Assembly: GCA_036172245.1 (NCBI GenBank)
Contig: JAYWIR010000026.1
Span: forward strand, 1,178,001 to 1,242,000
DNA: 64,000 bases
Direction of reading: 5' to 3'
Source: Raillietiella orientalis
Taxonomy: Eukaryota
Part shown: positions 3,667-49,916 of the stretch, one piece after another
Numbering within the stretch: position 1 is the stretch's first letter
Layout: every line of letters begins with the position of its first letter
Position numbers and translations under genes: made by a program
The notes under the pieces: generated by a model
What the model saw: only the letters and a program-made list of their open reading frames with translations
Databases searched by the model: none
What the model was told of the DNA's origin: nothing

Positions 3667-3724
3667 GTAAGAGCTACCTTTCCAACTGAAAACTTGCTCA
3701 CCTCCTCCCTCAACTCAGCCTCAG

Positions 3725-23903: not shown

Positions 23904-24099
23904 TTTCTTGGATCTGCGCTTCAGGGAATTCGATCTTCGGCCGGACCGATGGTTTCTTGCGAATGCAGAGCTGAAAAAGAGAAGCTCGTTAACCCTTTCG
24001 CTCCCGACTCCGGTGCTGTACAGGCGGCATCCTCTCAACGATCCGTCGCCACGAACACGGGCCAGCGTAGCCGAGTTGCAAGCCTGTACTGGAAGCAAG

Positions 24100-24870: not shown

Positions 24871-25269
24871 AAATCATCCGTTTAACATTCTGGGATGTGA
24901 ATGAATACGTTTACCGAGGTGCCAATGCGAAGACGTGATGTTGGGTGGTACATGTCTCCCTGTTTCTGAACGACGCGCATCATATTCATTCATATGATAA
25001 TTATTCGCTTATCAAATCACTCATTTATATTACTGATCCGCTGGAAACGTGTTGATTATTATGTTTATTATTACCATTCCTTTTTTTTTTATCGAAGGCG
25101 GTTTGTACACCGGCGTGGGATGGCAAACCCTGAAGGTCAGACACTGTCCATGCCGACAGTGTACGCTTATGGCATGGCACCCCCTTTCAGCCGTGGCCGT
25201 TGCAGACGGCCAGTTGCGTGGTAGCGAAACGAAATCCCGTTTCCGTTTTCCTGGAGTTCTTTAATGGCT

Positions 25270-26040: not shown

Positions 26041-26044
26041 CGAA

Positions 26045-27066
26045 ACGTCCAGGCAACGGGCACGGCCCTCTCAGGGCCGGACCCGGAATCCCGAAAGGTT
26101 TTTAAAAATAAGCGCACGCACGCACATTGCAGATTTTAATATCATTATTGATGCGTTTATTGTGTACACATAGAGTGGTTTGTATTGTAAAGGTTATGAA
26201 TACATGTGTGTGTGCCCACCCTGCGCGTTAACGTGTATGTGATAAATGTACATTCAATGAATGTCGAATAAATGATGATAATTGGTGAATAAAAATAGTG
26301 GGGGTGGAGGTGGGGGGAAAAGAAGCAGAAAAAAAACAAATTGGAAAGAAAAAGAAGAAAGAAAATTTTCTGTTGGATTTTCCTGCCATTTCCAACACGC
26401 ACGGAACGGCGAATTTTATTTCCGGGATTCCGATCCTTCGATAAATGGCTGTCTATTTAAATCGATATTTGTATGTTCATTATGCGTGTAAATATATATT
26501 AATGTACAAAAGAAACATGTATTCATTTCTTAGAATCCTTACTCTATAAATAATACATATCAACACACGTTATTAATTATGGTAATGAATGGGCATGTCA
26601 AAATAAATCTGTATATTAATCTATCTCTATCTACATGCATATCAGCATACATAAAAGGCATATATATATCTTATTTTGCATAACGTTTAGGGTATATATG
26701 AAGTCATATATCAGTATAGCTATTGATATACATAATAAACATATATAGTTATTCTTTGTCTTCATAATATATATCGATGAATACCAGTATATAACAGACA
26801 TATTATGCATTTTATTAATGATATGCATGTTAATAAATATAACTAAATATAGGTGTTCAAATCAATTTCTAAATGAATTCACATATAAATAAAGATCTCC
26901 ATTCGTTTTTCATCACCTTTCTAATGTATGTGAATCTATACATTAATCTAGGTACGAATATACATATTAATACATGTAATCAACATATGTATTTATTTTT
27001 AAGCTGCTGAGAGAGCTCGACGTGGGCATTCGTTTTGCAAAGGCCCCGCCGTGGTGCGTCTGACGA
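26045..27066. mobile_element. AT-rich element with degenerate inverted ends, probably related to 4283-5703
   Basis: Abrupt AT-rich island bounded by ttaaaaataa (26102) and ttatttttaa (~26993). Its left end aaaggtttttaaaaataagcgca resembles 4350-4381, and internal 26370-26406 resembles the reverse complement of 5141-5180. Confidence 0.35.
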
Positions 27067-28599
27067 ATATATACGCCGTGTGGAAAAAAAATCTCCATTT
27101 GCCACGAAGATACGACGTTTCAGTGGAAAGTTGGGAAAATCCCGTGTACGGCGGGCCTTTTGGCTAAGATCGAAGTGTACACGTGTATTTTGATCGCAAC
27201 GTGCAATGAATGGCCTCGTTCATTTTTTATCTGCCGACCAAACACACACACACAAAAAAAAGAATTCTTCTTCCTTCCTTTTCTTTTTTCGCACTGAGTT
27301 TCTGCACATACTTTTCGCATAACCGAAGCTCCAATCGAGGAAAGAAATGACAATAATTTTCCTCGATTAAAGCTTCAGTGATGTCCCTCAACTAAGGCTC
27401 CCAAGGATCCCTTCTGGCAAAGAGTGACCTGCGCGAGGCGGAATTCAGGATTTTCGTCCTCCTCCCACCTTGAAGATGACCGAAACGCGACCTCGAGAAG
27501 CAGAATTCCCGGAATCGAAACTGCTTGGGGGAAAAAAAAATGGACCCGACGTGGATGCAAATCCCAGCGCATTCCGCAACAGGGCACTCGCGTGGACGGA
27601 TCCCCGTTGCCATGGAGAGGACGACTGCCTCGGAAGCAGCACGTGTGCCTTCCAGAAGGAATCGTTTGGGAATGGAAGTTTTTGCCCGGTGCGATCTGTA
27701 CACATTTGGAACTTCCGGGCGCACACTGGCGAAAACACAGAATGTGGTCAAAACTGTCCTCTATCGATACAAGACTCGCATCGTTCCCGAACTCTCTCGT
27801 GACCTATTGGACCATAAGATAACCAATTCCTTATGAGTTTTTTTTTTTTTTTATTCTTCTTGTGTATGAAGTTTCTCATTGTCTATACAATGACGAGATT
27901 TTGGTGAATAATGCTTTTTCCTTTTTTTCGTTGAAATTTACAATGGATGCATTTGCTGCGCATGTGAGTCTACCTATCCGTTTCGCCCAGTTTCACCCGC
28001 CGGTGGAATCTGCAAAAAAAATGACTCGCTCAGCAGGCTGAGGACTTGCGGTGAACAGCCTCCCTCGAGGTGTTCTCTTTCGCCTCGTCTCCGAAAGTCT
28101 CCATCGGAAACTTCTCTTTAACCCTTTGCCCGAGAAGGAAGTGAAAGAGGAATGCACCCACAACGTCGGAAGAATTCCGCGACACTCCGCCGCTGCATTA
28201 AAGCACAGTCGACGAATTTGTGACCTCCCTAGCCTCGCGGCGTTCCGCCTCCGAAATTCTCTGGAGCAGCATCTGCATGTGCTGGCGGGATGCCTGCCGT
28301 GCTCAGCTTCGGCTGAAGAAGAAGCACGGAGTAAGCTTTCGGGATCTCCTTCACTGCTGAAGCTGACGAAATACCTCCACGCTCTTGTGGTGCGGAGTCT
28401 GCTTCCCGCGATTGACGTGCGTCCATCGATAAAAGTCGTTGATATAAGGCGAAAACAAGGGAAAAAAAAAAAAATGCGAACGTTGCCAGGCAGTGGGTCC
28501 AGGAGGAGAACGCCATCAAGTGAAGTCGGTGAAGTCAAAGAGTCAAGGACTTCTTGAGTACGCGAGAACAGCATATCCAAGAAGCGATTGGTCAGTCTT

Positions 28600-30900
28600 C
28601 CTGTGGATTCAGGCTGCTTCCTGTAACCCGTTGATGCCTGTAAACAGGAACCGAGCTTCCGCATGTCCCTCTGTACCAGGGGATCCCCAGATGGGCTTTG
28701 TCCTTCGACGGTGCCAGCTACTCCCTCAGCCGCCTTCTTCAACGGAGAGCGTTCCCGTAGTTGCGCCTCGATCTTTCGCGAATCCGATCTGGACCGGCTT
28801 CACCACCGCACGCTCACGGGAATCCACCAACAGCCGGGAATCTTCGGCTGGCGGCGGCGGCTCCACGCTTTGCGCAGACGGCAGATGAGCACACAGCAGC
28901 CTTTAGAGATTCCAGCGGCGGCAGCCACACTTGGCCGCACGGTGCGAAAACTTCGAGGACGGTGGGGAAGTGCGTGGGGAGAATTCCGGGATTTCTCTCT
29001 GGAGCACGAAGCTTCGCTGCCCGCGTCGGAGGCCACGTGGCTACGGTATCCGCGCGTGGCACCTCCAAGCGTCGCGGGTCCGAACACTCTGAAGTGAATC
29101 GACGCAGCGCGTCTCAGGTTTCGAGTTCCTCCCGCGAGATGACACTGGTTGTCCTGCATCCATTCGGGCGCGGCACCGGTGACGCTTCAATCCGGATGCC
29201 CCCGATAAAGGCCAGAACAATGGGACTCGGTCTTCGGGTCCTTCCAGGAATCACGCAGTGGGGAGCTCTTCCCCTCCCGTTGTGAAGGAGAGGACATCGC
29301 ATTCCGAGGTCGTGCTGAGGGAGTAGATGTGTCCTCACCTCTCCAGAGAGTGGCAAGAAGCGAGCTGATCCCTCCGCGGAAACAGCGTTCTTCTGAATTT
29401 CGGAAGCGCCCCTTCGGGGTTCTCTTGAGAGGAGGAGGAAGCAGGAGCAGTCCACTGGCGGGTTGCCTCCGGGGAGAATAAGGAAGGAGATTCCCTTCGG
29501 GATTCCCATTCGGAGACAACCAGGGTGGAGCCGATTTCCATTCCGGAGATCCCTCCCCAGGCGTGAGAGGAACCGCCTTGAACCCTTCCTGGATTGTGCG
29601 GTAAGATTGGACCCCATCGTCACCGCACTGGACATTTTTTTTTTCATCGCGAACTCGTGCCATGCAGGTCTAACACGCTTGCTTCTGCCGCCACAAGAGA
29701 CCGACGCTGCATCGATGACCTCCTCCCCACAGGGAGGAGCTGCGAGCTACGGTTTTCTCTCGAGTCTCGGACCAAGACAGGCAAAGCAGATCGCTGTTCC
29801 CGGGAAGGAGGATCAACGGAGAGCGGAGAGAGGCACGAGAAGGGGATGAGGGCGCGGAGGGAATCAGGGTGGATCGCCCTTCGGACGGGAGGCGGAGGAA
29901 GCTTCTCGAGGGAGCTGAGACCTATGGACGCGCGACGGACCGAAATTCCAAAGCTCGCTCCTGCATGACACACGCACACACGCCTTTTGTTCACATGAGC
30001 GCCCAGAGAACTCACGAAAAGATTCTCGTCGATCCCAGTTTATCCCCAAGAGCAGTTCTCTCCCTCTCCCTTCCTCTCTACCTCTCCCAGGCGATTCCGC
30101 CTACCACGCGCAGCATCCTCCCTTCCGAGGAGGTTCGCATGAGTCCTCCTTCCGCCTGATGGAAACCAGTTTCCGATCCAAGCCCGAAGGGCGAGTTCTA
30201 TGGAGGAACCATTCCGATATGCCGGCGCCCGCTCCTCCTAGCGGTTGAGCGTCCGAGGGGAAGCCTCATCGGAAAGACGCAGCCGGGGAGAGGGCCCTGC
30301 GGACGAGGGTTCCGGTTTGCCGAGAGTCGAGCTGCGGCCAATCCCGAGAGTCGGCACGCGCGTTCCTCGGGATGAGCCTCCGGTGCGCAGGGGAGGGAGC
30401 CGAACTTCCGCGCGGACCGTGCGTCGCCGATTCCGTCAGAAGCAAGCGCGGTCCAGGTCCGCGTCGGTTGGCGGCGCTCCCACCAGTCCGACAGACCCTC
30501 TCAGCTTATCGAATAAGATGTATGGCGGCGCAGGCGACCAGTGTGCTCGCCTTGGGACGCGAAGCATCTCCCTCTTCCGCATCTGTCCCTAGACTCCAAG
30601 TATCCTTGGCAAATCGTGTACGCAAACCGTACAGCTGCTCCCTCCTTCCATCCAATCCCCCTCCCATCAGATCAGATGGCTTCCAGATGGATGCGAAGCA
30701 AGGATGCCGATTCAGCGAAATGATTCGGGTTTCTTCTAGTGAGAGACAGCAAATGGGCAGAGGACACTCGAAGTGGCAGCGACCGGAAGAAGTCTTTGCA
30801 GGCCCCTGCTGATGGCGGGCAAGCATGGAGGAAATCCTTTTGGATTCTCCTGCTGGACGCGCTGGCCAACCTTTCGTTTTCTTTTTCTTCTTCTTTGGTT
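28600..30900 (+). mobile_element. Old L1/Tx1-like ORF2 remnant running into the left palindrome arm
   Basis: Ordered decayed motifs RVLPGITQWGALPLPL (~29235), KEIPFGIPI (~29485), SSPQGGAA (~29725) and GDQCARLGT / LPHLSLD (30535-30595), then a T-rich tail at ~30875. Confidence 0.5.
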
Positions 30901-33900
30901 CGACCAGTGCTGAAAACCCGCTCGCCTCCTCGGAGAAGGGGGAAAGGAAGAAGGATGGATTTACAAAGCTCGTTAACGCTGTCCACACCATTAGAGGGTG
31001 CGTATCTCTCTTCAAGTTATAGGGGGCAACCCTGGAGAATCCGGGACATTGACAAATATGCCAATGCGTGCCGTTTCGTTCGTGGTTCCAAGAACCGCCT
31101 TCCAAACGATTCCAAACGGTCTTTTACACCGTCCCGCTATCATCGGGTATCAACACATCTCTTCTTCCCATCAATCGGTGTAAGACTGTTCCAAGCGGCT
31201 GACTACCGAAACTTTCCTTAGAATTTCATGACGGCATTGATGACAAAGTTCCGCCGCAACTGAAAACGTACCATTGTCCTCAGTTCCACGACATTGCCAG
31301 CGCATAGAGTACTGGGGAATGCTCATCGGTATTTTACTGGCGCGATGAGACAAACACGCTTGAAAGACGGACTTCCCTATAGGCATTCAAATGAGTGGTC
31401 CAACTCGGTTTGCTGATTCTGCTCGTGGCGCATCGGCTGAGTCGGTATCACCGTAGGCGGCACCTTGGCACTTGGTAAATGCATTTTCGCGAGCTTAATT
31501 AGTTGGTTCTTTGATTCGAACACGAAGGGCGACCACCCGTAAATCTTTCGTTTAGAATCTCGACAACACTGCCAGGCATCGAGAAGTAGTCCAAACCCGA
31601 ACGCTTCGTCGCTATCTACTCCTGGAAGTGAAAGATGCTCAGCTGGGAGTGTGGAAGCGTCACAGCTGACAGCAGCGCGAACTCTCCGCTTAACGAAACA
31701 AGGGAAAACCCGGTTCGTGCACTCTTCACCACCTTCTACGACTTCAGGAAGGTTGTTGGTCGCCTAGGAAACTTGGAGGCCTGTCGAGAGATTCCCCTAT
31801 CGCGATGCCAATCACATCCGCATCCGATTGACTTCCAGCCTGTGCGTTTCGGCGGAAACTTATCCAAAAGGAATCCTACCGAAATCAAGAAATACCCAAA
31901 GGCAACCGAAATTGGCCAGGACAGAGAAGGAGAAAAAACCCAAATCCATGCTCTCCCTATTCCTACCACTGGTGGCGACGCTCGCAATGTCTTCATAACC
32001 GAAATTTCGGCATTCTTTTCGTCGAACCGAGTCCGTGGAAAGAGCTTTTGTTAAAGTATCCGCGAATGAAAATCACACATCAAGAACCGAGCAGAAAAAG
32101 ATCGAAAGAGGAGAAAAAAGAGAGAGAAGGAAGCACCGAGTCGGTGGAAGCAGAAGAGGTCACGGGTGCATCCGACCTGAACTGCTAAGATTAGCGAAGG
32201 ACTCGTGGGGATGCGAGAGATGGAACGTAAGCAGCACGTCCAGGTAAGCATGCGGAAGACACCTCCCTGCGACGCATGTAGACGCAGATCAATGCAAAGT
32301 GTGTCTGCACCCGTTTCGTTCACTCCCACACAGGAATCCAAAACCATGAATACCAGAAAAAACGAAGGATGCACCAACAGGTAATAACTTCTTCCTGCGT
32401 CCCCTCAAAACAACGGTCTTCACGTTTCCTGAACCCGCACGCAAACGGCGCACGACACGTGTTCTCACGGCCAAACGCACATCAGCAGCTTGCTAGAAGT
32501 TCTTGCAGTCTCCTTCGTTATCCGCGAACACGTGAAAAGCCGTCACCAAAAACACAACCTCACACAGAAAGGAAAAAGGAGCTTCCCTGTATCACTACTC
32601 CGCAGGATGCTCTCCCGAGCGCACGCCAGCCCGACAACATCGTCCATTTTAGTGTGCTCCGAAATCAAGACACGTTCCAACCACACCGCCTAAAAAAAAC
32701 TAAGGAGGATGAGAAAACCAACTCTGCACATAAATCGAAACACCCGAGCTGGCGGCAGACTGGAAACCGCGTCCAGGAGTCCCACCTCCTAGCGACACAA
32801 TGGTTCGCTGTACGCAAGAGGCATCAAAGAGGAGACGGATGCGCCTCTGTTTTCCAGCCTTCCTCCGAAGAAAGTTTGCGCTAAGTGCGTGCGCTGGGTT
32901 ACGAGCGAGCGCCTGGCACCCAGGCGCCGAAATGTTCCCCCGTCGACCACCACGACCCGCGGCAAGTGGATGGACAGGCGTCCGTCTAACCGCTTCTCTC
33001 GAGCGACGCCGGTGCTGGCGTGGCCAGCGGAAAGCCTTGCGGTCGCCCCACGTCGCACGCGTTGCCGGGACGCGCGCAGATGTTGCCATAGAGGTGAAGA
33101 GACGGTTCTCGGGCCCTTGTCGCACCGAAGAGCAGCCAACGAAGAGGGCGCCCACATGCTCTCCGAGTGGGAGAAACCCCTTTTCCCTTCCAGGCCGCTG
33201 CCCGAGTGGCGGCTGCAAGTCGGCGTCCCGGAGAGGACTGAGAGCGGCAGCAGCCCTCGTCGCCCACGGCCGACTCTCCCACCGCGCCGTTGAGCACTTC
33301 TTCGACGGCAGCCCCGTGGAGGTGCCACTCGTTCCCTGCTGAAGAGATCTTCGAATCCGCAGGATGGATGCAACCGGTGGCGCCTGAAAGGGGCATTTGC
33401 GGAAGAACAGTCCGCGACGTTTCTCTTGTGAAGGGCGCAAAGAGTGTGTGCTGGGGCTCCCGTAGTCGGCTGTGTCGCAGCGAGCACTTCGGCAACTCGA
33501 GAACGAGCGGAAAGTCCGTGTCGGATGTTAGGCGTCCCCGTGTCGCCAGCTCCGACTCGCGAAAGCCCCCCGTCGCGGCTGAGGCCGATGTTGCTAGACA
33601 AGCGTGCAGGCCGGCGCCACAGAAAGATGGGAAAAGGGAGAGGAGGGAGGCTGAAGAGAACGAGCGGATCCCTCCTCGCACTCCCACCCGGACGCACGCG
33701 CTCAACCAATTCACTCCGCGCACAGAAGCGCACGAAACGACTCTTCCAGAAGCAAACAAGGAAGCAGCTTACCACCATCCAGCATCCAGCGAATCCAGCG
33801 ATGCTGCCGGCGGATTCACCAAAGGGCAATTTTTATAGTGCTCGGAGGTGATAAGAAAATGGCCGGCGTGCAGGGAATGCCATTAAGGCGCGCGATGTCC

Positions 33901-36900
33901 TTAGGACTGCATGCCGTCGAATTGTGCGAACTATCTGCGGGCCGGCGGCAAGCGGCTTCGTCCCGACTGCCGCCGCCCACTTAAGTGTGTTGCAAGTTGG
34001 CAAGTCCGGGAGTGCAGGGAAGAATCTTAAGCGTGGACGGAACACCCGGAGGTTGGCGAAACGGGAAATGGGAAGGAGCGGCGATTCTCCACCCGTCCCT
34101 CGGACGCTTGAAATTTCAAGCAGAGCCGACCGCAGATCGTCGCGCGCGAGAGGCACGCAGCCAGCGTCTCCGGATGCGTAGCAACGTGGAGGACGCATCC
34201 AAGCAGCGGTCGCCGTTCCACGCAACTCGCAGCGTCCAGCGCCACCGCCCTCCCCTTACTCCCCTCACGGTCAATCCCGGTGCTGGAGGGAGGGCCGCCA
34301 GCACGTGCTCCACCGTCCACAGAGGAGTTGTTCTCCTGACTCCGCATGGCGGTCGGCGGACCTTTGCGGCTGCGACGGCGCTCGCGGAAGCGGAGCCATC
34401 ACCACCACTCCTCTGAGCTAGTCGCGCTTCCCCAGGCAATGACAGCGCAGGGTGTCCTTCCGAGCAGGAGAAGGCCAGGCGAACTCGGCAGGCAGACAGC
34501 AAGGACGCTTGTTATGCTGCATCCCCTTGGAGAAGATCGAACGTTCTCCGCAAAAGACGTCGGTAGGTTCCATCTCTTTGCCACGGACTCCCTGGAACGC
34601 GGCAGGCTTGCAGTCGGAGGTGCAAAGCAAACACCGGGAATACTGTCGAAACGCGTTTCGCGGATTTCGCGCACGAGATGGACCAACCGGTGTTCCTCGC
34701 AGGCAGGATGAAAGCAGAGTGGTCCGCGCGAGTGAGTCTCCTTCTTGGTGACGTTGCTCTGCAGGATCGGAAAGAAAGGCTGCCGTTGGGATGGCACTCG
34801 GCTTCGAGTGTGCGCGGAGCTTACGGAACGAGCGGTCCTTCCAGAATTCTCTCCACTCCTCAAATGCTGGCGCGCACAGGTTCACCGCCTCCGCCCCTTT
34901 CCCTCGTTCGGTCCTACCCTGGGAAGGAAAAAAGAAAAACGATGACAGGAGCCAACAGAAGCTCAGTTTGCTGACCGAGGCTGTCCACCCTTGCCTGGCA
35001 CGAGAAGGAAACCACGGAACATTCCAGAATCCTCGCCAGATCTCGAGAAAGGCAGCTTCACTCGTCACAACGGCACGAGAGAGCGCTGCCAGGAACAGGA
35101 GGAGAAAGAGGATAGGAGCTTTCCAAGCTGCTCGCGTTGCTGGGAGAGTCGACGCAGACGATGGAACTCTCCCGTCATCTTGCGCCGAAGCGCACCTCGA
35201 TGCAGCGTCCGAAGCGTTGCAAAATCTTCCCGAGAAATCGCCTGAAAAGTCTTCGCGCGACCACAGCGAGGACACTCGCTGCTTCCCCTCTCCGTATCTA
35301 TCTTGGAGCGAAAACTCTGCATCCCAGGATCACGAAAACTCGAGATAACCTCAGGAAGGCCCTCCATATCGCTCGCTTCCACGTTGCTGCGAAGGCCGTC
35401 GCCAAGCAGCGCAGGTAACCTTCAGCAAAGTTGCCCCCTAGCGGTGCTGCACCGAGGAGGCTAAGCCTCTCTCACGAACATTCGAAGAGCAGGCTCGCTC
35501 GCAGTCGGAGGCGGGAAGAGGCTGCTGCCTGCCGGAAGACAGTCGCTCCTCTTCGCTCGCCATCCGGGCGACGGTGACTCCCTCTCGACGTGGCGGCCAG
35601 AATTCGCACCAACCTGCGTGGGAAGAAAACGCCCGAGGGCAGTGAATCCTCACGGAAGCTTCCTGCAGACGCGTGCGGAACCAAAGCGACCCGCTGCGAC
35701 GGGAGGAATCGCGCTTGCGATCGTGTTGCCCCTCCCTCCATCCGGTTCCCCGCTTTTTCTTTCCGCCAAGTCCCTTTCCGCTTCGCGGAGAAGCCCGTCA
35801 CATCTCATCCCCGATTACCGGCCACACGCATCCGTTCGCTCGCGGGCATTCCGCCGAGTGCCGCAGAGGTCCTTTGCGCCACTGGTCCCTCTTCACCGAG
35901 AAAGGGAGCCAGGGGTCGATCTCGGAAGATCCCTGCGAAGACGCGGCGTCCCGTTCCCTTTGCTCGCCTCCCGCAATGGATACAGGAAGACGGAAGGAGC
36001 GTCGCCTGGAGACGCTGGAAGCTCCCTCGTCGAGCTGCACGTTCGCACCCGGCGACTCGGTTCGTTGCGGAGGTCCTTCCGGTGAAGGCGGGTTTTCCGG
36101 TGGGGAGTCGCCCCTGTGCGCGTCGGGCGTCTGCCTGATCCGAGTTGGGGCATTCGCCTCTCCGGGAAGACGAAACACCGCCCGCGTGAGGAGGCGCGAG
36201 TCCTTGGAGACAGAGCAAGGACACTCCGTTGACCTCGCCCTCCGAATTTCAGAAAGAGCGGCCGGAAGGAAAACCGGTAGCCGGGAGCGATGCTCTTCTC
36301 CAAGGCAGCCTTCGCTGTGCGGGAAGCCCGGAACCGCGAAGCAGCGACCGTCTTCGTCGTTCTCAGCCACCAGTGGCAAAAGCAGCAGCAGCATCAGCAG
36401 CAGCAGACCGCGCCGACGCTCTCGGGAACTTTGCCGCTCGCAGCGGACACATCCCGGTCCCCTTGGCGCGTTCCCTGTACTCCGCGATCGTCACCTGAAG
36501 AGGAAACGGATGGCCGCATTGGACGGGGAGCGCGGATATCCTCCTGTTGCTGTCTCGGCAACGCCAAATCCTCTCCCTGGAGCTCTGGAGCTTGCTTTCC
36601 TGGAATGCACGTTCGCGGGCCTCCCGGTCCACCACCACTGCAGAGAGGCGAACGCGTTGCTGAGAGGGAAAAAACTCCTCCCGTCTTCCGTCCCGCGCAC
36701 GGGACCGCACGCCCTTGCTGTCCCGAACGCATGGACGTTTCCGTGGAGCTCCCACCCTGGTCGATCGTCCCTTCTTCCCTTCGTCCCGCTCCCGTTACCT
36801 CTTGCCCCCGTTTCGTGCGCCGTTCGTCCATGCCGTTGGACGCACGAGCGTTGGCGCCGCGTCGCGAAAGCAGCCGCAGCTACGGGTGCGTCGGGAGCGC

Positions 36901-38588
36901 GCACCGAAGCTGAAAATGTTTGTTTCTTCCTGGTGGACGGCACTTTTCATCGCCGATGGCCGACGCCCGCACAACGTCTGCGCGCGATTGGGTGTCCGCC
37001 GAACGATTTCATCCGGGAATTCCCCTCGCAAGCGGAGTTTCCGCGAGTTCCCCCCACAAGGGAACGCGTCGTCGTTACCTGCTCCAGTGCTGCAACCACG
37101 GGGGCTTCGGTCGATCCGCCCCTCCACAGAGAGTTCCCGTACCCATTCTTCCCTGGTCCCGAGCTTGATGCGGTCCTCCGGTCCGCTCTTCGCACCCACA
37201 TTTCACGCCACTCGGAACGCGGATGCGACTCGCATCTCAACCACGTGCTCTTGGGCCGCATTCCGTCCGCGTTTTCCCAGCCGCCGAAGAGGCGAGAATC
37301 GCGTCCTTCCGACTTCCGAGCGGAGATGCTCGGCCGCGTGCGGGAGAGGTCTCCGGATGCAAGAGCGCGGTTCCGCGTCTCCTTGCGACCCGAAGAAGTG
37401 CTGAGCCTCCCCATGGCCCATCCGACGTCCGGAGCGCGCAGCCTCCGCGCATCCCCTCCCGAATGGAGCGGCGCGCACGCGGGAAACCTTCGACCTTCCG
37501 GGCTACGGCGCGAGAAACGAACTCGTTCGCTCCCGGCCCGCTTTTCGCATCCCATTCCCGGAAAGGCGTCCCAGTCCGAGCACCGGCAGCCATTCTTGCA
37601 GCACCATCGATGCCCCTCGACTTCACTCGTCGCGTCTTCCCGCCGAAATCAGCATCCGCCCGCTCGTCGTGCGGGACGAGGCGCTGCTCTCGGATGGCGA
37701 GCGAAGCGAGCGGCTCGTCGCATCTTCTCTTCTCGCGTCCGCTGTTTCCCCTGGCTTCGCTGCACAATCCGCACGAGGCCGTCCCTCCGCAGAGAGAAAA
37801 TAAAAAGGCAAAAGCAAAAAAAAGAGAAAAAGATAGAAAAGAAAGCGCGACCGGAGCGCACCTGCGCAGTTGGACACGGACCCTTGCGGCGGTCACGGAA
37901 GCCAACCCACGCGCGCCTCACTGAGCAGACAGTTGCCCGGCAAGAAAGCGCCGCATCAGCAACAAAGTTTGTCCGCTCCATCGGGAACCTCACCACACCC
38001 CGATGCAGTCGGCTCCAGAAAGCAAACAACTCCTTCTACCTGGACGCGCAGAGCAAGCATTGCAGCTGATTAGGTAGCGGCACCGCCACCTCCCTACTGG
38101 TAGTCGCTACTGCCACTGCGTTTCACGGACACGGTCGCACATATTCAGGAGCTCCCCAGCGTGCCACGGAACCAGCTACCGCTTGCGCCGGGTCGCCTTG
38201 CTTCAAGGCAATGGACCTCGGCACGAGCGCCTCCTCCCGGAGCACGGCAAAGCCGCTTCCTGCGGACACACGCGGGACTCTGCAGCATGCGCAGGCACGC
38301 CGGAGCGACCCCCGTGCTTCATGCGAGACCCAACTCTCCCTCCTACTCCACTGCCCCTACCCCAACCATCTGGACTCTGCTTGCCCCGTTTCCCGTCCGA
38401 CACCTGCGGCCGATCCATTTCCTCAAAACGGTTCCCCTTCCGCGGGAAGTGCCCAGCGCCGTGCGCTGCCGTTCCGTTCTTCGCGCAATTCGGCGCACCC
38501 CTTCGTCGACCCATGCCTGCAGCCGCACCTGCCCCGTTCCCGCTGGAACGCACGCGGGCCGACCCCCTGCGCAGCTCAGGTCTTCGAG
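30568..38588 (+). repeat. Left arm (8021 bp) of a 16.3-kb inverted duplication
   Basis: Reverse complement of 38865-46883. The ORF track is mirrored (e.g. 35673-38069 + versus 39384-41777 -). The length difference is explained by a 3-bp CAG indel and a 1-bp indel. Confidence 0.98.
32691..37553 (-). mobile_element. Near full-length, highly decayed L1/Tx1-like element in the left arm
   Basis: Mirror image of 39900-44760. Confidence 0.5.
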
Positions 38589-38864
38589 TGGGCCTTCCGG
38601 AAAGGAAGGCAATTGCCCGATCGGTTGAGGGCGCGCAGCCGAGGCGTTCCGGGCCTATGACCATCACGTGACTATTGCATTTCAAGTACTCGTGACCACT
38701 TATAGACCATCGTACTCCAAAAGGAAACTTCGGACTTCGACCGAACAACGAACGTCAGCAAGCACTTCATCAGCGCTCACAAAGCAATCAATATGCCACC
38801 TCTGCAAGACTGTGAGCTCTCGTTATCAGCAATTCCGTAGACGCATTGGGAAAGATAAAGCTGC
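38589..38864. other. Unique 276-bp spacer at the palindrome centre
   Basis: Arm identity ends at ...tcttcgag (38588) and resumes at ctcgaaga... (38865). Confidence 0.95.
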
Positions 38865-41800
38865 CTCGAAGACCTGAGCTGCGCAGGGGGTCGGCCCGCG
38901 TGCGTTCCAGCGGGAACGGGGCAGGTGCGGCTGCAGGCATGGGTCGACGAAGGGGTGCGCCGAATTGCGCGAAGAACGGAACGGCAGCGCACGGCGCTGG
39001 GCACTTCCCGCGGAAGGGGAACCGTTTTGAGGAAATGGATCGGCCGCAGGTGTCGGACGGGAAACGGGGCAAGCAGAGTCCAGCTGGTTGGGGTAGGGGC
39101 AGTGGAGTAGGAGGGAGAGTTGGGTCTCGCATGAAGCACGGGGGTCGCTCCGGCGTGCCTGCGCATGCTGCAGAGTCCCGCGTGTGTCCGCAGGAAGCGG
39201 CTTTGCCGTGCTCCGGGAGGAGGCGCTCGTGCCGAGGTCCATTGCCTTGAAGCAAGGCGACCCGGCGCAAGCGGTAGCTGGTTCCGTGGCACGCTGGGGA
39301 GCTCCTGAATATGTGCGACCGTGTCCGTGAAACGCAGTGGCAGTAGCGACTACCAGTAGGGAGGTGGCGGTGCCGCTACCTAATCAGCTGCAATGCTTGC
39401 TCTGCGCGTCCAGGTAGAAGGAGTTGTTTGCTTTCTGGAGCCGACTGCATCGGGGTGTGGTGAGGTTCCCGATGGAGCGGACAAACTTTGTTGCTGATGC
39501 GGCGCTTTCTTGCCGGGCAACTGTCTGCTCAGTGAGGCGCGCGTGGGTTGGCTTCCGTGACCGCCGCAAGGGTCCGTGTCCAACTGCGCAGGTGCGCTCC
39601 GGTCGCGCTTTCTTTTCTATCTTTTTCTCTTTTTTTTGCTTTTGCCTTTTTATTTTCTCTCTGCGGAGGGACGGCCTCGTGCGGATTGTGCAGCGAAGCC
39701 AGGGGAAACAGCGGACGCGAGAAGAGAAGATGCGACGAGCCGCTCGCTTCGCTCGCCATCCGAGAGCAGCGCCTCGTCCCGCACGACGAGCGGGCGGATG
39801 CTGATTTCGGCGGGAAGACGCGACGAGTGAAGTCGAGGGGCATCGATGGTGCTGCAAGAATGGCTGCCGGTGCTCGGACTGGGACGCCTTTCCGGGAATG
39901 GGATGCGAAAAGCGGGCCGGGAGCGAACGAGTTCGTTTCTCGCGCCGTAGCCCGGAAGGTCGAAGGTTTCCCGCGTGCGCGCCGCTCCATTCGGGAGGGG
40001 ATGCGCGGAGGCTGCGCGCTCCGGACGTCGGATGGGCCATGGGGAGGCTCAGCACTTCTTCGGGTCGCAAGGAGACGCGGAACCGCGCTCTTGCATCCGG
40101 AGACCTCTCCCGCACGCGGCCGAGCATCTCCGCTCGGAAGTCGGAAGGACGCGATTCTCGCCTCTTCGGCGGCTGGGAAAACGCGGACGGAATGCGGCCC
40201 AAGAGCACGTGGTTGAGATGCGAGTCGCATCCGCGTTCCGAGTGGCGTGAAATGTGGGTGCGAAGAGCGGACCGGAGGACCGCATCAAGCTCGGGACCAG
40301 GGAAGAATGGGTACGGGAACTCTCTGTGGAGGGGCGGATCGACCGAAGCCCCCGTGGTTGCAGCACTGGAGCAGGTAACGACGACGCGTTCCCTTGTGGG
40401 GGGAACTCGCGGAAACTCCGCTTGCGAGGGGAATTCCCGGATGAAATCGTTCGGCGGACACCCAATCGCGCGCAGACGTTGTGCGGGCGTCGGCCATCGG
40501 CGATGAAAAGTGCCGTCCACCAGGAAGAAACAAACATTTTCAGCTTCGGTGCGCGCTCCCGACGCACCCGTAGCTGCGGCTGCTTTCGCGACGCGGCGCC
40601 AACGCTCGTGCGTCCAACGGCATGGACGAACGGCGCACGAAACGGGGGCAAGAGGTAACGGGAGCGGGACGAAGGGAAGAAGGGACGATCGACCAGGGTG
40701 GGAGCTCCACGGAAACGTCCATGCGTTCGGGACAGCAAGGGCGTGCGGTCCCGTGCGCGGGACGGAAGACGGGAGGAGTTTTTTCCCTCTCAGCAACGCG
40801 TTCGCCTCTCTGCAGTGGTGGTGGACCGGGAGGCCCGCGAACGTGCATTCCAGGAAAGCAAGCTCCAGAGCTCCAGGGAGAGGATTTGGCGTTGCCGAGA
40901 CAGCAACAGGAGGATATCCGCGCTCCCCGTCCAATGCGGCCATCCGTTTCCTCTTCAGGTGACGATCGCGGAGTACAGGGAACGCGCCAAGGGGACCGGG
41001 ATGTGTCCGCTGCGAGCGGCAAAGTTCCCGAGAGCGTCGACGCGGTCTGCTGCTGCTGCTGCTGCTGCTTTTGCCACTGGTGGCTGAGAACGACGAAGAC
41101 GGTCGCTGCTTCGCGGTTCCGGGCTTCCCGCACAGCGAAGGCTGCCTTGGAGAAGAGCATCGCTCCCGGCTACCGGTTTTCCTTCCGGCCGCTCTTTCTG
41201 AAATTCGGAGGGCGAGGTCAACGGAGTGTCCTTGCTCTGTCTCCAAGGACTCGCGCCTCCTCACGCGGGCGGTGTTTCGTCTTCCCGGAGAGGCGAATGC
41301 CCCAACTCGGATCAGGCAGACGCCCGACGCGCACAGGGGCGACTCCCCACCGGAAAACCCGCCTTCACCGGAAGGACCTCCGCAACGAACCGAGTCGCCG
41401 GGTGCGAACGTGCAGCTCGACGAGGGAGCTTCCAGCGTCTCCAGGCGACGCTCCTTCCGTCTTCCTGTATCCATTGCGGGAGGCGAGCAAAGGGAACGGG
41501 ACGCCGCGTCTTCGCAGGGATCTTCCGAGATCGACCCCTGGCTCCCTTTCTCGGTGAAGAGGGACCAGTGGCGCAAAGGACCTCTGCGGCACTCGGCGGA
41601 ATGCCCGCGAGCGAACGGATGCGTGTGGCCGGTAATCGGGGATGAGATGTGACGGGCTTCTCCGCGAAGCGGAAAGGGACTTGGCGGAAAGAAAAAGCGG
41701 GGAACCGGATGGAGGGAGGGGCAACACGATCGCAAGCGCGATTCCTCCCGTCGCAGCGGGTCGCTTTGGTTCCGCACGCGTCTGCAGGAAGCTTCCGTGA

Positions 41801-44800
41801 GGATTCACTGCCCTCGGGCGTTTTCTTCCCACGCAGGTTGGTGCGAATTCTGGCCGCCACGTCGAGAGGGAGTCACCGTCGCCCGGATGGCGAGCGAAGA
41901 GGAGCGACTGTCTTCCGGCAGGCAGCAGCCTCTTCCCGCCTCCGACTGCGAGCGAGCCTGCTCTTCGAATGTTCGTGAGAGAGGCTTAGCCTCCTCGGTG
42001 CAGCACCGCTAGGGGGCAACTTTGCTTGAAGGTTACCTGCGCTGCTTGGCGACGGCCTTCGCAGCAACGTGGAAGCGAGCGATATGGAGGGCCTTCCTGA
42101 GGTTATCTCGAGTTTTCGTGATCCTGGGATGCAGAGTTTTCGCTCCAAGATAGATACGGAGAGGGGAAGCAGCGAGTGTCCTCGCTGTGGTCGCGCGAAG
42201 ACTTTTCAGGCGATTTCTCGGGAAGATTTTGCAACGCTTCGGACGCTGCATCGAGGTGCGCTTCGGCGCAAGATGACGGGAGAGTTCCATCGTCTGCGTC
42301 GACTCTCCCAGCAACGCGAGCAGCTCGGAAAGCTCCTATCCTCTTTCTCCTCCTGTTCCTGGCAGCGCTCTCTCGTGCCGTTGTGACGAGTGAAGCTGCC
42401 TTTCTCGAGATCTGGCGAGGATTCTGGAATGTTCCGTGGTTTCCTTCTCGTGCCAGGCAAGGGTGGACAGCCTCGGTCAGCAAACTGAGCTTCTGTTGGC
42501 TCCTGTCATCGTTTTTCTTTTTTCCTTCCCAGGGTAGGACCGAACGAGGGAAAGGGGCGGAGGCGGTGAACCTGTGCGCGCCAGCATTTGAGGAGTGGAG
42601 AGAATTCTGGAAGGACCGCTCGTTCCGTAAGCTCCGCGCACACTCGAAGCCGAGTGCCATCCCAACGGCAGCCTTTCTTTCCGATCCTGCAGAGCAACGT
42701 CACCAAGAAGGAGACTCACTCGCGCGGACCACTCTGCTTTCATCCTGCCTGCGAGGAACACCGGTTGGTCCATCTCGTGCGCGAAATCCGCGAAACGCGT
42801 TTCGACAGTATTCCCGGTGTTTGCTTTGCACCTCCGACTGCAAGCCTGCCGCGTTCCAGGGAGTCCGTGGCAAAGAGATGGAACCTACCGACGTCTTTTG
42901 CGGAGAACGTTCGATCTTCTCCAAGGGGATGCAGCATAACAAGCGTCCTTGCTGTCTGCCTGCCGAGTTCGCCTGGCCTTCTCCTGCTCGGAAGGACACC
43001 CTGCGCTGTCATTGCCTGGGGAAGCGCGACTAGCTCAGAGGAGTGGTGGTGATGGCTCCGCTTCCGCGAGCGCCGTCGCAGCCGCAAAGGTCCGCCGACC
43101 GCCATGCGGAGTCAGGAGAACAACTCCTCTGTGGACGGTGGAGCACGTGCTGGCGGCCCTCCCTCCAGCACCGGGATTGACCGTGAGGGGAGTAAGGGGA
43201 GGGCGGTGGCGCTGGACGCTGCGAGTTGCGTGGAACGGCGACCGCTGCTTGGATGCGTCCTCCACGTTGCTACGCATCCGGAGACGCTGGCTGCGTGCCT
43301 CTCGCGCGCGACGATCTGCGGTCGGCTCTGCTTGAAATTTCAAGCGTCCGAGGGACGGGTGGAGAATCGCCGCTCCTTCCCATTTCCCGTTTCGCCAACC
43401 TCCGGGTGTTCCGTCCACGCTTAAGATTCTTCCCTGCACTCCCGGACTTGCCAACTTGCAACACACTTAAGTGGGCGGCGGCAGTCGGGACGAAGCCGCT
43501 TGCCGCCGGCCCGCAGATAGTTCGCACAATTCGACGGCATGCAGTCCTAAGGACATCGCGCGCCTTAATGGCATTCCCTGCACGCCGGCCATTTTCTTAT
43601 CACCTCCGAGCACTATAAAAATTGCCCTTTGGTGAATCCGCCGGCAGCATCGCTGGATTCGCTGGATGCTGGATGGTGGTAAGCTGCTTCCTTGTTTGCT
43701 TCTGGAAGAGTCGTTTCGTGCGCTTCTGTGCGCGGAGTGAATTGGTTGAGCGCGTGCGTCCGGGTGGGAGTGCGAGGAGGGATCCGCTCGTTCTCTTCAG
43801 CCTCCCTCCTCTCCCTTTTCCCATCTTTCTGTGGCGCCGGCCTGCACGCTTGTCTAGCAACATCGGCCTCAGCCGCGACGGGGGGCTTTCGCGAGTCGGA
43901 GCTGGCGACACGGGGACGCCCAACATCCGACACGGACTTTCCGCTCGTTCTCGAGTTGCCGAAGTGCTCGCTGCGACACAGCCGACTACGGGAGCCCCAG
44001 CACACACTCTTTGCGCCCTTCACAAGAGAAACGTCGCGGACTGTTCTTCCGCAAATGCCCCTTTCAGGCGCCACCGGTTGCATCCATCCTGCGGATTCGA
44101 AGATCTCTTCAGCAGGGAACGAGTGGCACCTCCACGGGGCTGCCGTCGAAGAAGTGCTCAACGGCGCGGTGGGAGAGTCGGCCGTGGGCGACGAGGGCTG
44201 CTGCCGCTCTCAGTCCTCTCCGGGACGCCGACTTGCAGCCGCCACTCGGGCAGCGGCCTGGAAGGGAAAAGGGGTTTCTCCCACTCGGAGAGCATGTGGG
44301 CGCCCTCTTCGTTGGCTGCTCTTCGGTGCGACAAGGGCCCGAGAACCGTCTCTTCACCTCTATGGCAACATCTGCGCGCGTCCCGGCAACGCGTGCGACG
44401 TGGGGCGACCGCAAGGCTTTCCGCTGGCCACGCCAGCACCGGCGTCGCTCGAGAGAAGCGGTTAGACGGACGCCTGTCCATCCACTTGCCGCGGGTCGTG
44501 GTGGTCGACGGGGGAACATTTCGGCGCCTGGGTGCCAGGCGCTCGCTCGTAACCCAGCGCACGCACTTAGCGCAAACTTTCTTCGGAGGAAGGCTGGAAA
44601 ACAGAGGCGCATCCGTCTCCTCTTTGATGCCTCTTGCGTACAGCGAACCATTGTGTCGCTAGGAGGTGGGACTCCTGGACGCGGTTTCCAGTCTGCCGCC
44701 AGCTCGGGTGTTTCGATTTATGTGCAGAGTTGGTTTTCTCATCCTCCTTAGTTTTTTTTAGGCGGTGTGGTTGGAACGTGTCTTGATTTCGGAGCACACT

Positions 44801-46883
44801 AAAATGGACGATGTTGTCGGGCTGGCGTGCGCTCGGGAGAGCATCCTGCGGAGTAGTGATACAGGGAAGCTCCTTTTTCCTTTCTGCGTGAGGTTGTGTT
44901 TTTGGTGACGGCTTTTCACGTGTTCGCGGATAACGAAGGAGACTGCAAGAACTTCTAGCAAGCTGCTGATGTGCGTTTGGCCGTGAGAACACGTGTCGTG
45001 CGCCGTTTGCGTGCGGGTTCAGGAAACGTGAAGACCGTTGTTTTGAGGGGACGCAGGAAGAAGTTATTACCTGTTGGTGCATCCTTCGTTTTTTCTGGTA
45101 TTCATGGTTTTGGATTCCTGTGTGGGAGTGAACGAAACGGGTGCAGACACACTTTGCATTGATCTGCGTCTACATGCGTCGCAGGGAGGTGTCTTCCGCA
45201 TGCTTACCTGGACGTGCTGCTTACGTTCCATCTCTCGCATCCCCACGAGTCCTTCGCTAATCTTAGCAGTTCAGGTCGGATGCACCCGTGACCTCTTCTG
45301 CTTCCACCGACTCGGTGCTTCCTTCTCTCTCTTTTTTCTCCTCTTTCGATCTTTTTCTGCTCGGTTCTTGATGTGTGATTTTCATTCGCGGATACTTTAA
45401 CAAAAGCTCTTTCCACGGACTCGGTTCGACGAAAAGAATGCCGAAATTTCGGTTATGAAGACATTGCGAGCGTCGCCACCAGTGGTAGGAATAGGGAGAG
45501 CATGGATTTGGGTTTTTTCTCCTTCTCTGTCCTGGCCAATTTCGGTTGCCTTTGGGTATTTCTTGATTTCGGTAGGATTCCTTTTGGATAAGTTTCCGCC
45601 GAAACGCACAGGCTGGAAGTCAATCGGATGCGGATGTGATTGGCATCGCGATAGGGGAATCTCTCGACAGGCCTCCAAGTTTCCTAGGCGACCAACAACC
45701 TTCCTGAAGTCGTAGAAGGTGGTGAAGAGTGCACGAACCGGGTTTTCCCTTGTTTCGTTAAGCGGAGAGTTCGCGCTGCTGTCAGCTGTGACGCTTCCAC
45801 ACTCCCAGCTGAGCATCTTTCACTTCCAGGAGTAGATAGCGACGAAGCGTTCGGGTTTGGACTACTTCTCGATGCCTGGCAGTGTTGTCGAGATTCTAAA
45901 CGAAAGATTTACGGGTGGTCGCCCTTCGTGTTCGAATCAAAGAACCAACTAATTAAGCTCGCGAAAATGCATTTACCAAGTGCCAAGGTGCCGCCTACGG
46001 TGATACCGACTCAGCCGATGCGCCACGAGCAGAATCAGCAAACCGAGTTGGACCACTCATTTGAATGCCTATGGGGAAGTCCGTCTTTCAAGCGTGTTTG
46101 TCTCATCGCGCCAGTAAAATACCGATGAGCATTCCCCAGAACTCTATGCGCTGGCAATGTCGTGGTACTGAGGACAATGGTACGTTTTCAGTTGCGGCGG
46201 AACTTTGTCATCAATGCCGTCATGAAATCCCAAGGAAAGTTTCGGTAGTCAGCCGCTTGGAACAGTCTTACACCGATTGATGGGAAGAAGAGATGTGTTG
46301 ATACCCGATGATAGCGGGACGGTGTAGAAGACCGTTTGGAATCGTTTGGAAGGCGGTTCTTGGAACCACGAACGAAACGGCACGCATTGGCATATTTGTC
46401 AATGTCCCGGATTCTCCAGGGTTGCCCCCTATAACTTGAAGAGAGATACGCACCCTCTAATGGTGTGGACAGCGTTAACGAGCTTTGTAAATCCATCCTT
46501 CTTCCTTTCCCCCTTCTCCGAGGAGGCGAGCGGGTTTTCAGCACTGGTCGAACCAAAGAAGAAGAAAAAGGAAAGGAAAGGTTGGCCAGCGCGTCCAGCA
46601 GGAGAATCCAAAAGGATTTCCTCCATGCTTGCCCGCCATCAGCAGGGGCCTGCAAAGACCTCTTCCGGTCGCTACCACTTCGAGTGTCCTCTGCCCATTT
46701 GCTGTCTCTCACTAGAAGAAACCCGAACCATTTCGCTGAGTCGGCATCCTTGCTTCGCAGCCATCTGGAAGCCATCTGATCTGATGAAAGGGGGATTGGA
46801 TGGAAGGAGGGAGCATCTGCACGGTTTGTGTACACGATTAGCCAAGGATACTTGGAGTGCAGGGAAAGATGCGGAAGGGGGAG
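38865..46883 (-). repeat. Right arm (8019 bp) of the inverted duplication
   Basis: Reverse complement of 30568-38588. Confidence 0.98.
39900..44760 (+). mobile_element. Near full-length, highly decayed L1/Tx1-like element in the right arm
   Basis: Motifs in LINE order: gag-knuckle relic FGGHPIARRRCAGVGHRR*KVP (40450-40515), APE-like AFQESKL (40845), REIRETRFDSI for DxxKAFD (42780), FSKGMQ (42918), PGLTV (43171), EHVGALFVGC (44290), then a T-run at 44752. Confidence 0.5.
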
Positions 46884-49266
46884 TTCCACAAACCTGTACG
46901 ATGTCGCCTTCATTCAGGTAGGGATGAGGCCCGCGAAATGAAGGCAGACAGCGCCGTTCCGAATTATTCTCCGTGCAAGCCACTGCTGCATTGCCAGCAG
47001 GATGCCCAACGGCGTGGTCGCAGGCGTAGTCAGCCAGCAGTTCCCCTCGTTGAGGAGCGCTGGTCAACACTTCCGACCGAGCGTTCCAATCGACTGGGCC
47101 GCCCTCATATCCGGCAAGCACTCCGATGGCAGCGGAGGCGTCCTCACTCGGGAGAAACGGGAGAACAACCTTTCCTCGAGGATGACGTGTGTTTCAGCCA
47201 GTTCTTTCCCAAGCGTGATCTTTAGACAGCTCCACCTAGAGACCAACGAAACCAGAACCGCTATTCCCTCCGGCGTCCAATGAGCGCCACACGACCTGCT
47301 GGACGCATGAAGCACTCCCATCCCTCCCCGTTGGGTTGTTAGAAGGCGAGATGACCGTTCATTTCTGCTCTCGGTGGACGCCGGAATACCACGAGAAACT
47401 CTTTGGTCTGCTCGACCGCCCGGGCTGCCTCCTAACAAAGACCATTTCTTCTGCGTTAACTCCATCGCAAGAAGAACAAGCATTGTACGGTTGAGTACTA
47501 AGCGACTCGCTTGGGCTTCCCTATCCCACAACACTCCTTCTTATCCCCAATCACCGGTCACCAGAGAGGCAATTCGCTCAGGGAGGGCGCAATTCCTGCG
47601 TAGCGAAACCCACGAATCGCAGTCCCTGTTCTCGTCCCAGCACCTTCCGCAATCGCAAATCAAGGAACTTCTCCTTTCCCTGCAAGCGGACGGAAAAAAA
47701 CATGCCATGTGTGAAGAAGCAAACGTCGTACCGACGAGGAAGATTCTGGCCAGCGTGGCAACTCATCAGTGCACTGCTCAGCATTCCCTGGGGCGACGCA
47801 TCTTTGCAACGGACCGGAAATTAACAATCTTAGAAGCGGACGAATTGCTTCGAGCCGAGACCTCGCTGTGGTGTTTGCGACGGACAACAGATGTCAGCGC
47901 TGCTGCCTCTCCCGACTCGAATGTTGGTTGGCAGGCACCAGCCATACTCTGCGGATCGTGCTTTGCCTGTGCTTCACCGCGACGGCCTCCAACCCCAAGA
48001 GACTCCTTGGCTCCTCGACGTGGTTCCTCTTGTTGCCTGCGTGCCCCAGGCACACACATCATTGAGCTCCAACTTTGAGACTTTGTTTTGGCGTTCCTTC
48101 CGCCTGGTGTCACGTGCATTTTCTGCATTCTGGTTCACTGCCGAGCGCTCTTCGCGTGCTGTCTTCCACACCCGCTCAGTGCGGAGAGTCCTCTGATGGA
48201 TCCCGTTCTTCCAGAGTAGAGGGTGCATCCGAAAGGGAAATAGGTCTTCTTCCAGACGCAGGGAATCGAGACAACCTTAACGGGGAACTGCGGCAAGCAG
48301 CCGGTGCAGAATCCCAACTTTCGACGGACGACTCGCTCGCAGCTCGTCCCGGGGGATGCTCAATGCGTGACCGCACCTCCTCTCAGGAACCTCCTTCTTT
48401 CCTCCTGAGAGCTCCAGAACCATCAGCATCGATTCCTGCAGGTTCCCTCAAAACGATGGTGCGCCTCTTCTCAGACGAATCCCCATTCAATTCTCCTCAT
48501 TGAGGACCTTTCTAGCTTTTTCTCCCTGACGGGCACCCTTCGCAAGACTCTGGTCACTCCTGAGAAGATGGACTTGCCGTCTTCTGCTTCTCCGTGGAGG
48601 ACGAACTTTGGTAACGGAGCCCCCGGCGGAAGACGGCCACGAGGTTTCTTTCTTTGCCCATCTCGGAAATGCTATTTTCTCAGCATTCCGTGGAAGGTGG
48701 ATTTTCTCATTTCACAAGGATCTGTAGCTGCCCGATCCGATGCTGTGCGTTCCTTTCTACTTCCGACGTTTTTTGTGAGACGCGTGGCTCGCCGCTTCAA
48801 TCGTTTGACCAGCGTCCCGGTCGCGCGCTCCAAATCGGGAGGCAGATGCGCTTCTGCTCGCGTAGTTAGCGGGAACGGACGCTCGGATGTTGCTGAGTCG
48901 GCCTTTCGCCACGTGGAAATCCCAACTTCCCGTGTTCCCGGAAACGCAAATGATTCCGAAGTTAACCTAGAAATGCCAATAGTGTTTTCAGAGTTCGACG
49001 ACGGCGGTTACGTCGGAGACCGCAAACAGGGGAATGTCATGGGGAAGCGGATCTGTGGAAGACTTCGTCACCTGCCGCTCGACCCAGAGCGCACCCGGGA
49101 GATCAGCGGCCCTGATGCAAAAGAAAGCGACTTGCCCAAAGCCCTCACCTGTGCCCGTGAGCATTTCGTCACCGGAAAACCTCGCCTTTCGTGAGGAACC
49201 GAAATTCCCGTCGCGACACAGGTCGCGGCTTTCGATTTGTTCCTGGTTCAGCCAGAGCAGCTCGGA
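46550..49266 (-). mobile_element. Old L1/Tx1-like ORF2 remnant running into the right palindrome arm
   Basis: ELLWLNQE and PLFAVSDVTAVV (APE-like, 49260-49000), RRYDVCFF (YADD position, ~47725), TTQRGGMGV (GGLG, ~47325), GDIVQVCGT / LPHLSL (46905-46860). Confidence 0.55.
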
Positions 49267-49298
49267 GATGCCACCCGGGTACGCCGGGACGTTTATTA

Positions 49299-49916
49299 AA
49301 ACTTTTCAATTCTCAAGACATGAAGTGGTAAAACCCCTTCTTTGGTCATTACAGAACGTGGTACAAGGCCCCCCTAACGGCCTCGAAACATCGGACCTGC
49401 CGGGACACCGGGACCCAGGCCGGTGTGACTCTCCTCGGCAGTGAAAGGGGAAGGGTGAGAAAACACAAAAAAAAATAAAATAACCGCAAAAAACAAAAGA
49501 GATTTTGGAAGGAAGGGATGGGATTACTGTCCACTGGGAGGAGAGTCCATCCTTTGCAGGATGCCCTCGAGGTCCTCCTTCGGTCTACCCAGCTGGCGCC
49601 ATCCGGTAGCTCTTTGAAGGAAGCGAACAGCTTTCGAAATGTCGTCTGTTACAATGGATCTTCGGATCCACTCCAGGCCGCTACAATGCCACGGATGCAG
49701 CAAAGTGCTGTCAAGGCTGCGACTGGACTGAGGGCGTCCCGCACGAAGAGAAGACTGTAAACGCCTCAGGGGTTGCCACCATCCGGTATCCCGAGGGCCG
49801 TTCCAAGACATTCCCATTCATTCCGGAGAGCAATGCAGTCAACTATGAGGTGGAGGAGGGACTCCCGCTCCCCACACCTGTCACACTTAGACTTTACTCT
49901 CCCTCGCGTCCCAGTG
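49299..49916 (-). mobile_element. 3' fragment of a younger L1/Tx1-like element (CCHC region to 3' UTR)
   Basis: Direct homologue of 51827-52396; encodes a C..CG.RESLLHLIVDC..L..W-type motif at 49890-49815. Confidence 0.85.

Follow-up and report, generated by a model that had tools for sequence, protein, structure and literature searches.

A palindrome with stepped arm divergence abuts a second inverted duplication in the Raillietiella orientalis genome

Structure of the locus

The 64,000-nucleotide stretch analysed here, referred to as the window, comes from the genome of Raillietiella orientalis (GenBank assembly GCA_036172245.1) and corresponds to positions 1178001-1242000 of contig JAYWIR010000026.1 (C26). 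It contains no N; the whole assembly comprises 210 Mb in 491 contigs. Flanking DNA was added on both sides, first 40 kb and later 90 kb each, so that 244 kb were examined in all; coordinates that are negative or exceed 64,000 continue the window numbering into this flank. We identified two inverted duplications in this region: the palindrome P1, which lies within the window, and P2, which abuts the right arm of P1 and was found once the flank had been added. Their parts are the following:

30568-38588, + strand: left arm of P1 (B), 8021 bp, delimited by self-BLAST and global alignment
38589-38864, no strand: spacer of P1 (S), 276 bp, 51% GC
38865-46883, - strand: right arm of P1 (B'), an inverted copy of 8019 bp with 28 substitutions and 2 indels relative to the left arm
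46879-46883, - strand: CTCCC, the outer breakpoint common to P1 and P2
46884-59255, no strand: left arm of P2 (C'), interrupted at 49269-53532 by a stretch that is absent from its partner and carries pieces of long interspersed nuclear elements (LINEs)
59256-64000, no strand: start of the P2 spacer (Y), which continues past the window and contains a third copy of the P1 arm end
65294-65711, no strand: this third copy, inside Y and 1.3 kb past the window
67434-79329 (C26:1245434-1257329), no strand, beyond the window: right arm of P2 (C)

Self-BLAST of the window returned a single long inverted match, 30568-38588 against 46883-38865, in which 8022 alignment columns are 99.601% identical, with 28 mismatches and 2 gaps. 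Together with a global alignment, this match bears out the coordinates in the preliminary description of this DNA, which had reported a near-perfect palindrome of about 16 kb with a 276-bp spacer; that description had missed both the stepped divergence between the arms and the abutting second palindrome. Taken alone, the P1 spacer folds no better than chance (z = -0.26), with 80 of 200 shuffled versions doing equally well.

The arms of P2 pair over 46915-49268 with 79284-76951 at 97.7% identity and over 53533-59255 with 73157-67434 at 98.6%. The two arms carry different inserts and are separated by a spacer of 8.2 kb. The pentanucleotide CTCCC starts both P1 arms and also ends the P2 homology (C26:1257325-1257329), which extends to this motif at 26 of 35 letters, a score matched by 1 of 5000 random windows. 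The layout of the locus is A-B-S-B'-C'-Y-C-D, that is, two back-to-back palindromes that have one outer breakpoint in common at a 5-bp microhomology.

The copy that lies in Y corresponds to positions 38239-38656, comprising the arm end joined to the first 68 bp of the spacer, and matches in 412 of 418 letters (98.6%). It is followed by 69 unrelated letters and then by a 150-bp arm piece at 91% (C26:1243294-1243930 overall); the arrangement suggests either a templated insertion or a remnant of the rearrangement. Because it carries both the left arm-spacer joint and the G found in the right arm at 38369, each of these two features has an independent copy.

Divergence between the arms

The differences between the P1 arms are not uniformly distributed along their length (Kolmogorov-Smirnov p = 3e-15) and define three zones, given here in left-arm coordinates:

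30568-30723, + strand: outermost zone, 13 substitutions in 156 bp (8.3%)
30724-31378, + strand: middle zone, 10 substitutions in 655 bp (1.5%)
31379-38588, + strand: homogenised inner zone, 5 substitutions in 7210 bp (0.07%), with two indels, one of 1 bp and one of 3 bp, the latter in a CAG run

In total, 23 substitutions lie in the outer 811 bp and 5 in the remaining 7210 bp (Fisher p = 6e-19). The second step, within this outer part, was equalled by 0.06% of 5000 simulations. Transitions account for 19 of the 28 substitutions, which is the usual bias of natural substitutions. P2 shows a like shape: the 400 bp closest to its joint with P1 hold 21 substitutions, the interior has patches of 0-3% divergence, and the 1.7 kb bordering its spacer hold a single substitution. 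Both palindromes diverge most where they meet and least at their centres. The P1 duplication appears to be older than its arm identity implies; this holds for the outer boundary, which has 8.3% divergence at its edge against 0.07% inside. The presence of stepped divergence on both sides of the common breakpoint is internal evidence that P1 is biological.

A GC bias of arm-to-arm copying was also considered for P1 and is unsupported, since GC content and arm identity are uncoupled and the weak/strong asymmetry between the arms (16 against 7) is not significant.

Sequence content of the arms

The arms had previously been described as consisting mainly of a decayed LINE. We found no LINE match in them with two profile hidden Markov models (HMMs), one of 63 L1/Tx1-type ORF2 proteins and one of 11 open reading frames (ORFs) of the local family, that score LINE pieces of the window at 13-327 bits. 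With the two profiles, the LINE pieces near 20.9-21.4 kb and 49.3-53.9 kb reached 13-67 bits and 28-327 bits; nothing in the P1 arms reached 3 bits with either, and the maxima of the reversed-sequence controls were 3.8 and 1.5 bits. LINEs are abundant in this genome, as all 150 scored of 3358 reverse transcriptase (RT) candidates match. Thirty ORF2 pieces, all from a single young LINE family of this genome, gave no arm match by tblastn or with their own HMM, and 73 ORFs from local LINE-family loci and others gave one marginal arm match (E 0.003-0.005). We rejected this tblastn match, at 34978-35277 (E 0.005, 30% identity), in which the query was an uncharacterised frame and to which the profiles lent no backing, together with tblastx rows within the arms that were short, spread over both strands and reproduced by no other method. 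Near 30550-30620 and 31000-31100 there are a few words similar by eye to what we take to be LINE motifs; neither profile scored them.

No retroelement or transposon domain was found when the stop-free fragments of the arms were compared with Pfam: none of the 111 fragments of at least 45 residues reached the cut-off, a search that remnants broken to fewer than 45 codons could escape. The arms are also not multi-copy. In the genome DNA search, the segment 31050-33600 matched only the two arms; 33600-36200 matched in addition one 220-bp locus on contig C14 at 75% (34565-34784, + strand, in the arm), and 36200-38864 matched in addition the nearby third copy and a 41-bp sequence at the CAG run. 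Altogether, 23 repeat-family and C14 loci matched 440 of 8021 arm bases. The sole multi-copy piece, at 30866-31042 (- strand), is a repeat 3' end with an A-rich tail, and its mirror copy lies near 46410-46585; 37 of the 40 genome matches listed fall here, at 68-90% identity (39 of 116 candidates were scored). It derives from an old interspersed repeat that is about 750 bp long, ends in an A-rich tail and carries a B-box-like motif at its head end in 7 of 20 loci; this repeat is probably a tRNA-headed short interspersed nuclear element (SINE). To judge from these homology searches, the P1 arms are not made mainly of LINE, and a very old, finely broken element could be missed. The SINE-like repeat also has a longer copy at 29008-29580, in the left flank of P1, oriented opposite to the arm piece.

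The statement that the arms contain no intact gene stands insofar as Pfam revealed no recognisable gene in them. A long stop-free frame sits in both arms:

35646-38069, + strand: stop-free frame of 807 codons in the left arm, rich in Arg, Ser and Pro
39384-41804, - strand: its right-arm version of 806 codons, kept open by the 3-bp indel

The region of this frame has 62.5% GC and a TpA frequency 0.28 of expectation, and a frame of at least this length arises in 3-5 of 300 Markov simulations. The frame matched no Pfam family and nothing in the Atlas, and in the genome it matched only itself and the third-copy fragment. It is probably a non-coding by-product of GC-rich, TpA-poor DNA; a lineage-specific gene may also be compatible with this chance expectation of 1-2%.

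Possible origin and maintenance of P1

Based on the layout and the divergence profile, we favour with moderate confidence a reading in which P1 is a genuine old inverted duplication of no known function, whose arms would be kept near-identical by repeated arm-to-arm copying, that is, gene conversion. Conversion is deduced here from the internal divergence gradient. A single replication-based event would have placed an inverted copy of the end of C joined to the start of B (block B'C') between S and Y. Three joints would be required, two of the fold-back type and one, at the microhomology, of the tandem-duplication type, and the event could have proceeded either by three template switches or by a tandem duplication followed by inversion and trimming of both palindrome centres. 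The P1/P2 joint would be old, as indicated by arm divergence of at least 8% at its edge. The arms, held close by the short spacer, would then repair from each other, and we propose that the stepped profile arose because conversion tracts seldom reach the outer edge. Using the relation c = 2u/d between conversion rate, mutation rate and arm divergence (10.1101/800185), a steady state with d = 0.0007 would place conversion in the inner zone at about 2,900 times the mutation rate. The 276-bp spacer would be long enough for the palindrome to be tolerated. The instability that had been expected of a palindrome with such a short spacer appears overstated in light of the yeast site FS2, reported as completely stable in wild type (PMC7999016).

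Several observations weigh against this reading. The five inner-zone substitutions are scattered evenly, a pattern that a single long and recent copying event would explain no less well than many short ones. GC content does not follow arm identity, since 31379-32700 is homogenised yet has 50.5% GC, and the asymmetry of weak and strong bases between the arms is unpolarised (p = 0.09). Searches across the A|B and C|D joints found no outside copy showing the ancestral outer joint. The remaining points come from X1, a single sparse DNA contig set in which 0.06 of the words are present and which may be the source sample. Over 20500-38900, its contigs fall in 16 of 30 bins and reach across no junction; none of the 8 pieces listed (there were 348 others) has right-arm letters.

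The even inner scatter and the single sharp step at 31378 would be expected if the palindrome had originated in two stages. In such a history, the outer repeat and P2 would be old, and the inner 7.2 kb of the right arm would have been made once, recently, by a fold-back or break-induced copy that rejoined at the inverted repeat already present and took the place of a longer spacer, so that the short spacer would be young and long-term upkeep unnecessary. Spacers of primate X palindromes are indeed described as often rearranged, the small ones most (PMC8327919). However, P1 has two divergence steps and not one, and P2 is a patchwork of 0-3% zones; because of these two features, repeated homogenising events appear to act at the locus, and we regard a two-stage origin as rather unlikely. 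A different possibility is that the inner palindrome is an artefact of assembly or amplification, either a fold-back chimera or two alleles of a single-copy stretch joined head to head. Whole-genome amplification gives rise to palindromic reads (10.1101/173872), mis-assembly can produce false palindromes (PMC7953838), and no X1 contig covers any P1 junction. One 151-letter X1 contig equals the left arm with 0 differences over 30710-30860, spanning four arm-diagnostic sites, and another piece has the left-arm form over the 1-bp indel at 35423; the X1 matches, possibly from the source sample, back the left-arm letters only. X1 is not deep enough to give a copy number: one piece of the inner arm has a depth of 6, six pieces of the flank have 2-3.6 and the piece of the outer arm has 2.1. 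Searching the genome with arm DNA returned neither a third complete copy of the P1 arm nor an alternative haplotype. A chimera would have arms that are alike save for errors or alleles and no tie to older rearrangements, whereas P1 shows stepped divergence and shares its breakpoint with P2. A one-template chimera cannot yield 23 substitutions in the outer 811 bp, nor can a chimera give a breakpoint common to an older duplication whose arms hold different inserts. Moreover, the artefact would need two chimeric joints that both dominate the data, and the differences between the arms are mostly transitions and not run-length errors. Because the divergence is stepped and rich in transitions and the breakpoint is shared with an older duplication, we consider an artefact improbable.

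The preliminary description had suggested that the palindrome might be a relic of fold-back or template-switch repair, or a hairpin directed against LINEs. The former part agrees with the two fold-back-type joints and the 5-bp microhomology joint described above. As a functional hairpin-RNA locus, P1 would produce a spacer-crossing transcript that folds into long double-stranded RNA and is diced to small RNAs. The centre of P1 is predicted to fold as a perfect stem round the spacer (z = -11.3), which is true by construction, and a hairpin RNA derived from transposable elements is on record in Drosophila simulans, where the arms of hp-ODox2 come from BS2/Jockey (PMC10317233). The anti-LINE idea loses its premise because the P1 arms show no LINE homology in profile and ORF searches. 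Furthermore, inward of 31050 the arm DNA has no matches in the genome apart from the arms themselves, the third copy close by, a 220-bp locus and a 41-bp sequence at the CAG run, and Rfam gave 0 matches in the window. The arms share no perfect 21-mer with 79 other loci, which total 337,673 bases, a small sample of the 210-Mb genome (0.34 Mb) enriched for LINE and SINE copies; the longest common word has 19 letters and lies in the SINE-like piece. Hairpin silencing from P1 would have little to target, and we consider this function highly improbable.

A broader conjecture, which we think unlikely, is that this genome keeps long palindromes by unusually efficient arm-to-arm repair without selection on genes. 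P1 would then have lasted while its edges drifted by at least 8%, beside a gene-bearing twin of the same event, and would perhaps be kept for a non-coding or hairpin RNA or for a lineage-specific protein encoded by the 807-codon frame. If this were true, the twin pair would be a built-in control for whether palindrome preservation needs gene selection. The gene-less P1, with its 0.28-kb spacer, and the gene-bearing P2, with its 8.2-kb spacer, could, given a common origin and population data, separate spacer length from selection as the factor that sets the rate of homogenisation.

Comparison with known palindromes

P1 appears to behave as a conversion-homogenised palindrome of a known type. 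Human X palindromes are described with arms of 8-140 kb and spacers of 77 bp to 358 kb (PMC8327919), and the geometry of P1 lies within the known range. Like primate X and Y palindromes, which have arms of at least 8 kb, identity above 99% and a single-copy spacer, P1 passes the filter used for the primate X chromosome (arms above 8 kb, identity above 99%, single-copy spacer) with arms of 8021 and 8019 bp, 99.6% identity and a 276-bp spacer. It resembles the human Y palindrome P6 in being gene-less, the latter being described as without protein-coding genes (PMC8600007). P1 differs from the primate palindromes in that it lies on an invertebrate contig, stands at the small end of the range and shares its outer breakpoint with a second palindrome, and in that conversion is deduced from an internal gradient and not from a comparison of species.

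The yeast FS2 site has almost the same geometry as P1. It consists of two 6-kb Ty inverted repeats around a 280-bp spacer and is described as fragile only when polymerase alpha is lowered (PMC7999016); its repeats are two independent Ty insertions, whereas the arms of P1 are a segmental copy of mostly unique DNA. Examples of inverted repeats that are kept alike within species in Caenorhabditis have spacers of 126 and 414 bp (PMC1803023). These share with P1 an invertebrate host, short spacers and homogenised arms, but the repeats described there carry gene pairs and their homogenisation was shown by comparing three species. The Drosophila hairpin RNA loci, represented by hp-ODox2, are likewise short-spacer inverted repeats, and P1 could adopt the same fold if transcribed.

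Among locally inverted human copy-number variants (CNVs), the copy pattern 1-2-1-2-1 (DUP/INV-NML-DUP) is a listed class, and the origin-dependent inverted-repeat amplification (ODIRA) model is presented in the same source (PMC10766186). The P1/P2 locus is similar to this class as described there in having two duplicated blocks beside single-copy DNA, fold-back-type joints and a joint with a few bases of microhomology. However, a plain inverted triplication orders C' before B', whereas here B' precedes C', and a tandem-duplication-type joint is therefore needed. The event is also old and fixed in the assembly, in contrast to a newly arisen clinical variant.

Genes and other features of the region

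Each arm of P2 carries a member of the SLC35G/EamA transporter family, and the two frames are arranged head to head:

56681-57676, - strand: intact single-exon SLC35G/EamA transporter frame in the left arm of P2
69013-70005, + strand, beyond the window: its intact partner in the right arm of P2

A transporter in the window has its best named matches among SLC35G1 proteins of insects, with 41-47% identity. Between the two P2 genes there are 9 synonymous and 16 non-synonymous codon differences, and it is possible that these genes form an island of divergence, as compared with the single substitution in 1.7 kb beside the spacer. Together with the frames at 15528-16562 (+) and 22926-24116 (-), they make four single-exon SLC35G/EamA paralogues in 55 kb.

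To the left, a unit of about 16.4 kb is repeated head to tail in about three copies at 95-97% identity (C26:1143861-1191575, window-numbered -34139 to 13575). It bears a frame at 3235-3804 that resembles a CUB-domain exon by eye and has no Pfam match. A tandem array with a 45-bp unit and 9.7 copies is located at 7272-7708. The frame at 21569-22162 (- strand), which lies beside a LINE 3' piece, has a zinc-finger-like cysteine pattern and gave only weak Pfam matches below the cut-off; we presume a resemblance to a MYND/SmydA exon. ARAGORN predictions at a lowered threshold were discarded as noise.

Two more small inverted duplications were identified in the 244 kb, at -42595 to -33690 and at 125446-130936, with arms of 2.5 kb at 98.0% and 0.8 kb at 99.5% identity. 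Elsewhere in the genome, contigs C71, C96, C114, C139 and C150 carry a young Tx1-like LINE family whose RT matches lie about 5.5 kb apart in the same orientation, which suggests that the family is arranged in tandem arrays; one Tx1-like copy has ORF1 and ORF2 within a single frame of 1810 codons.

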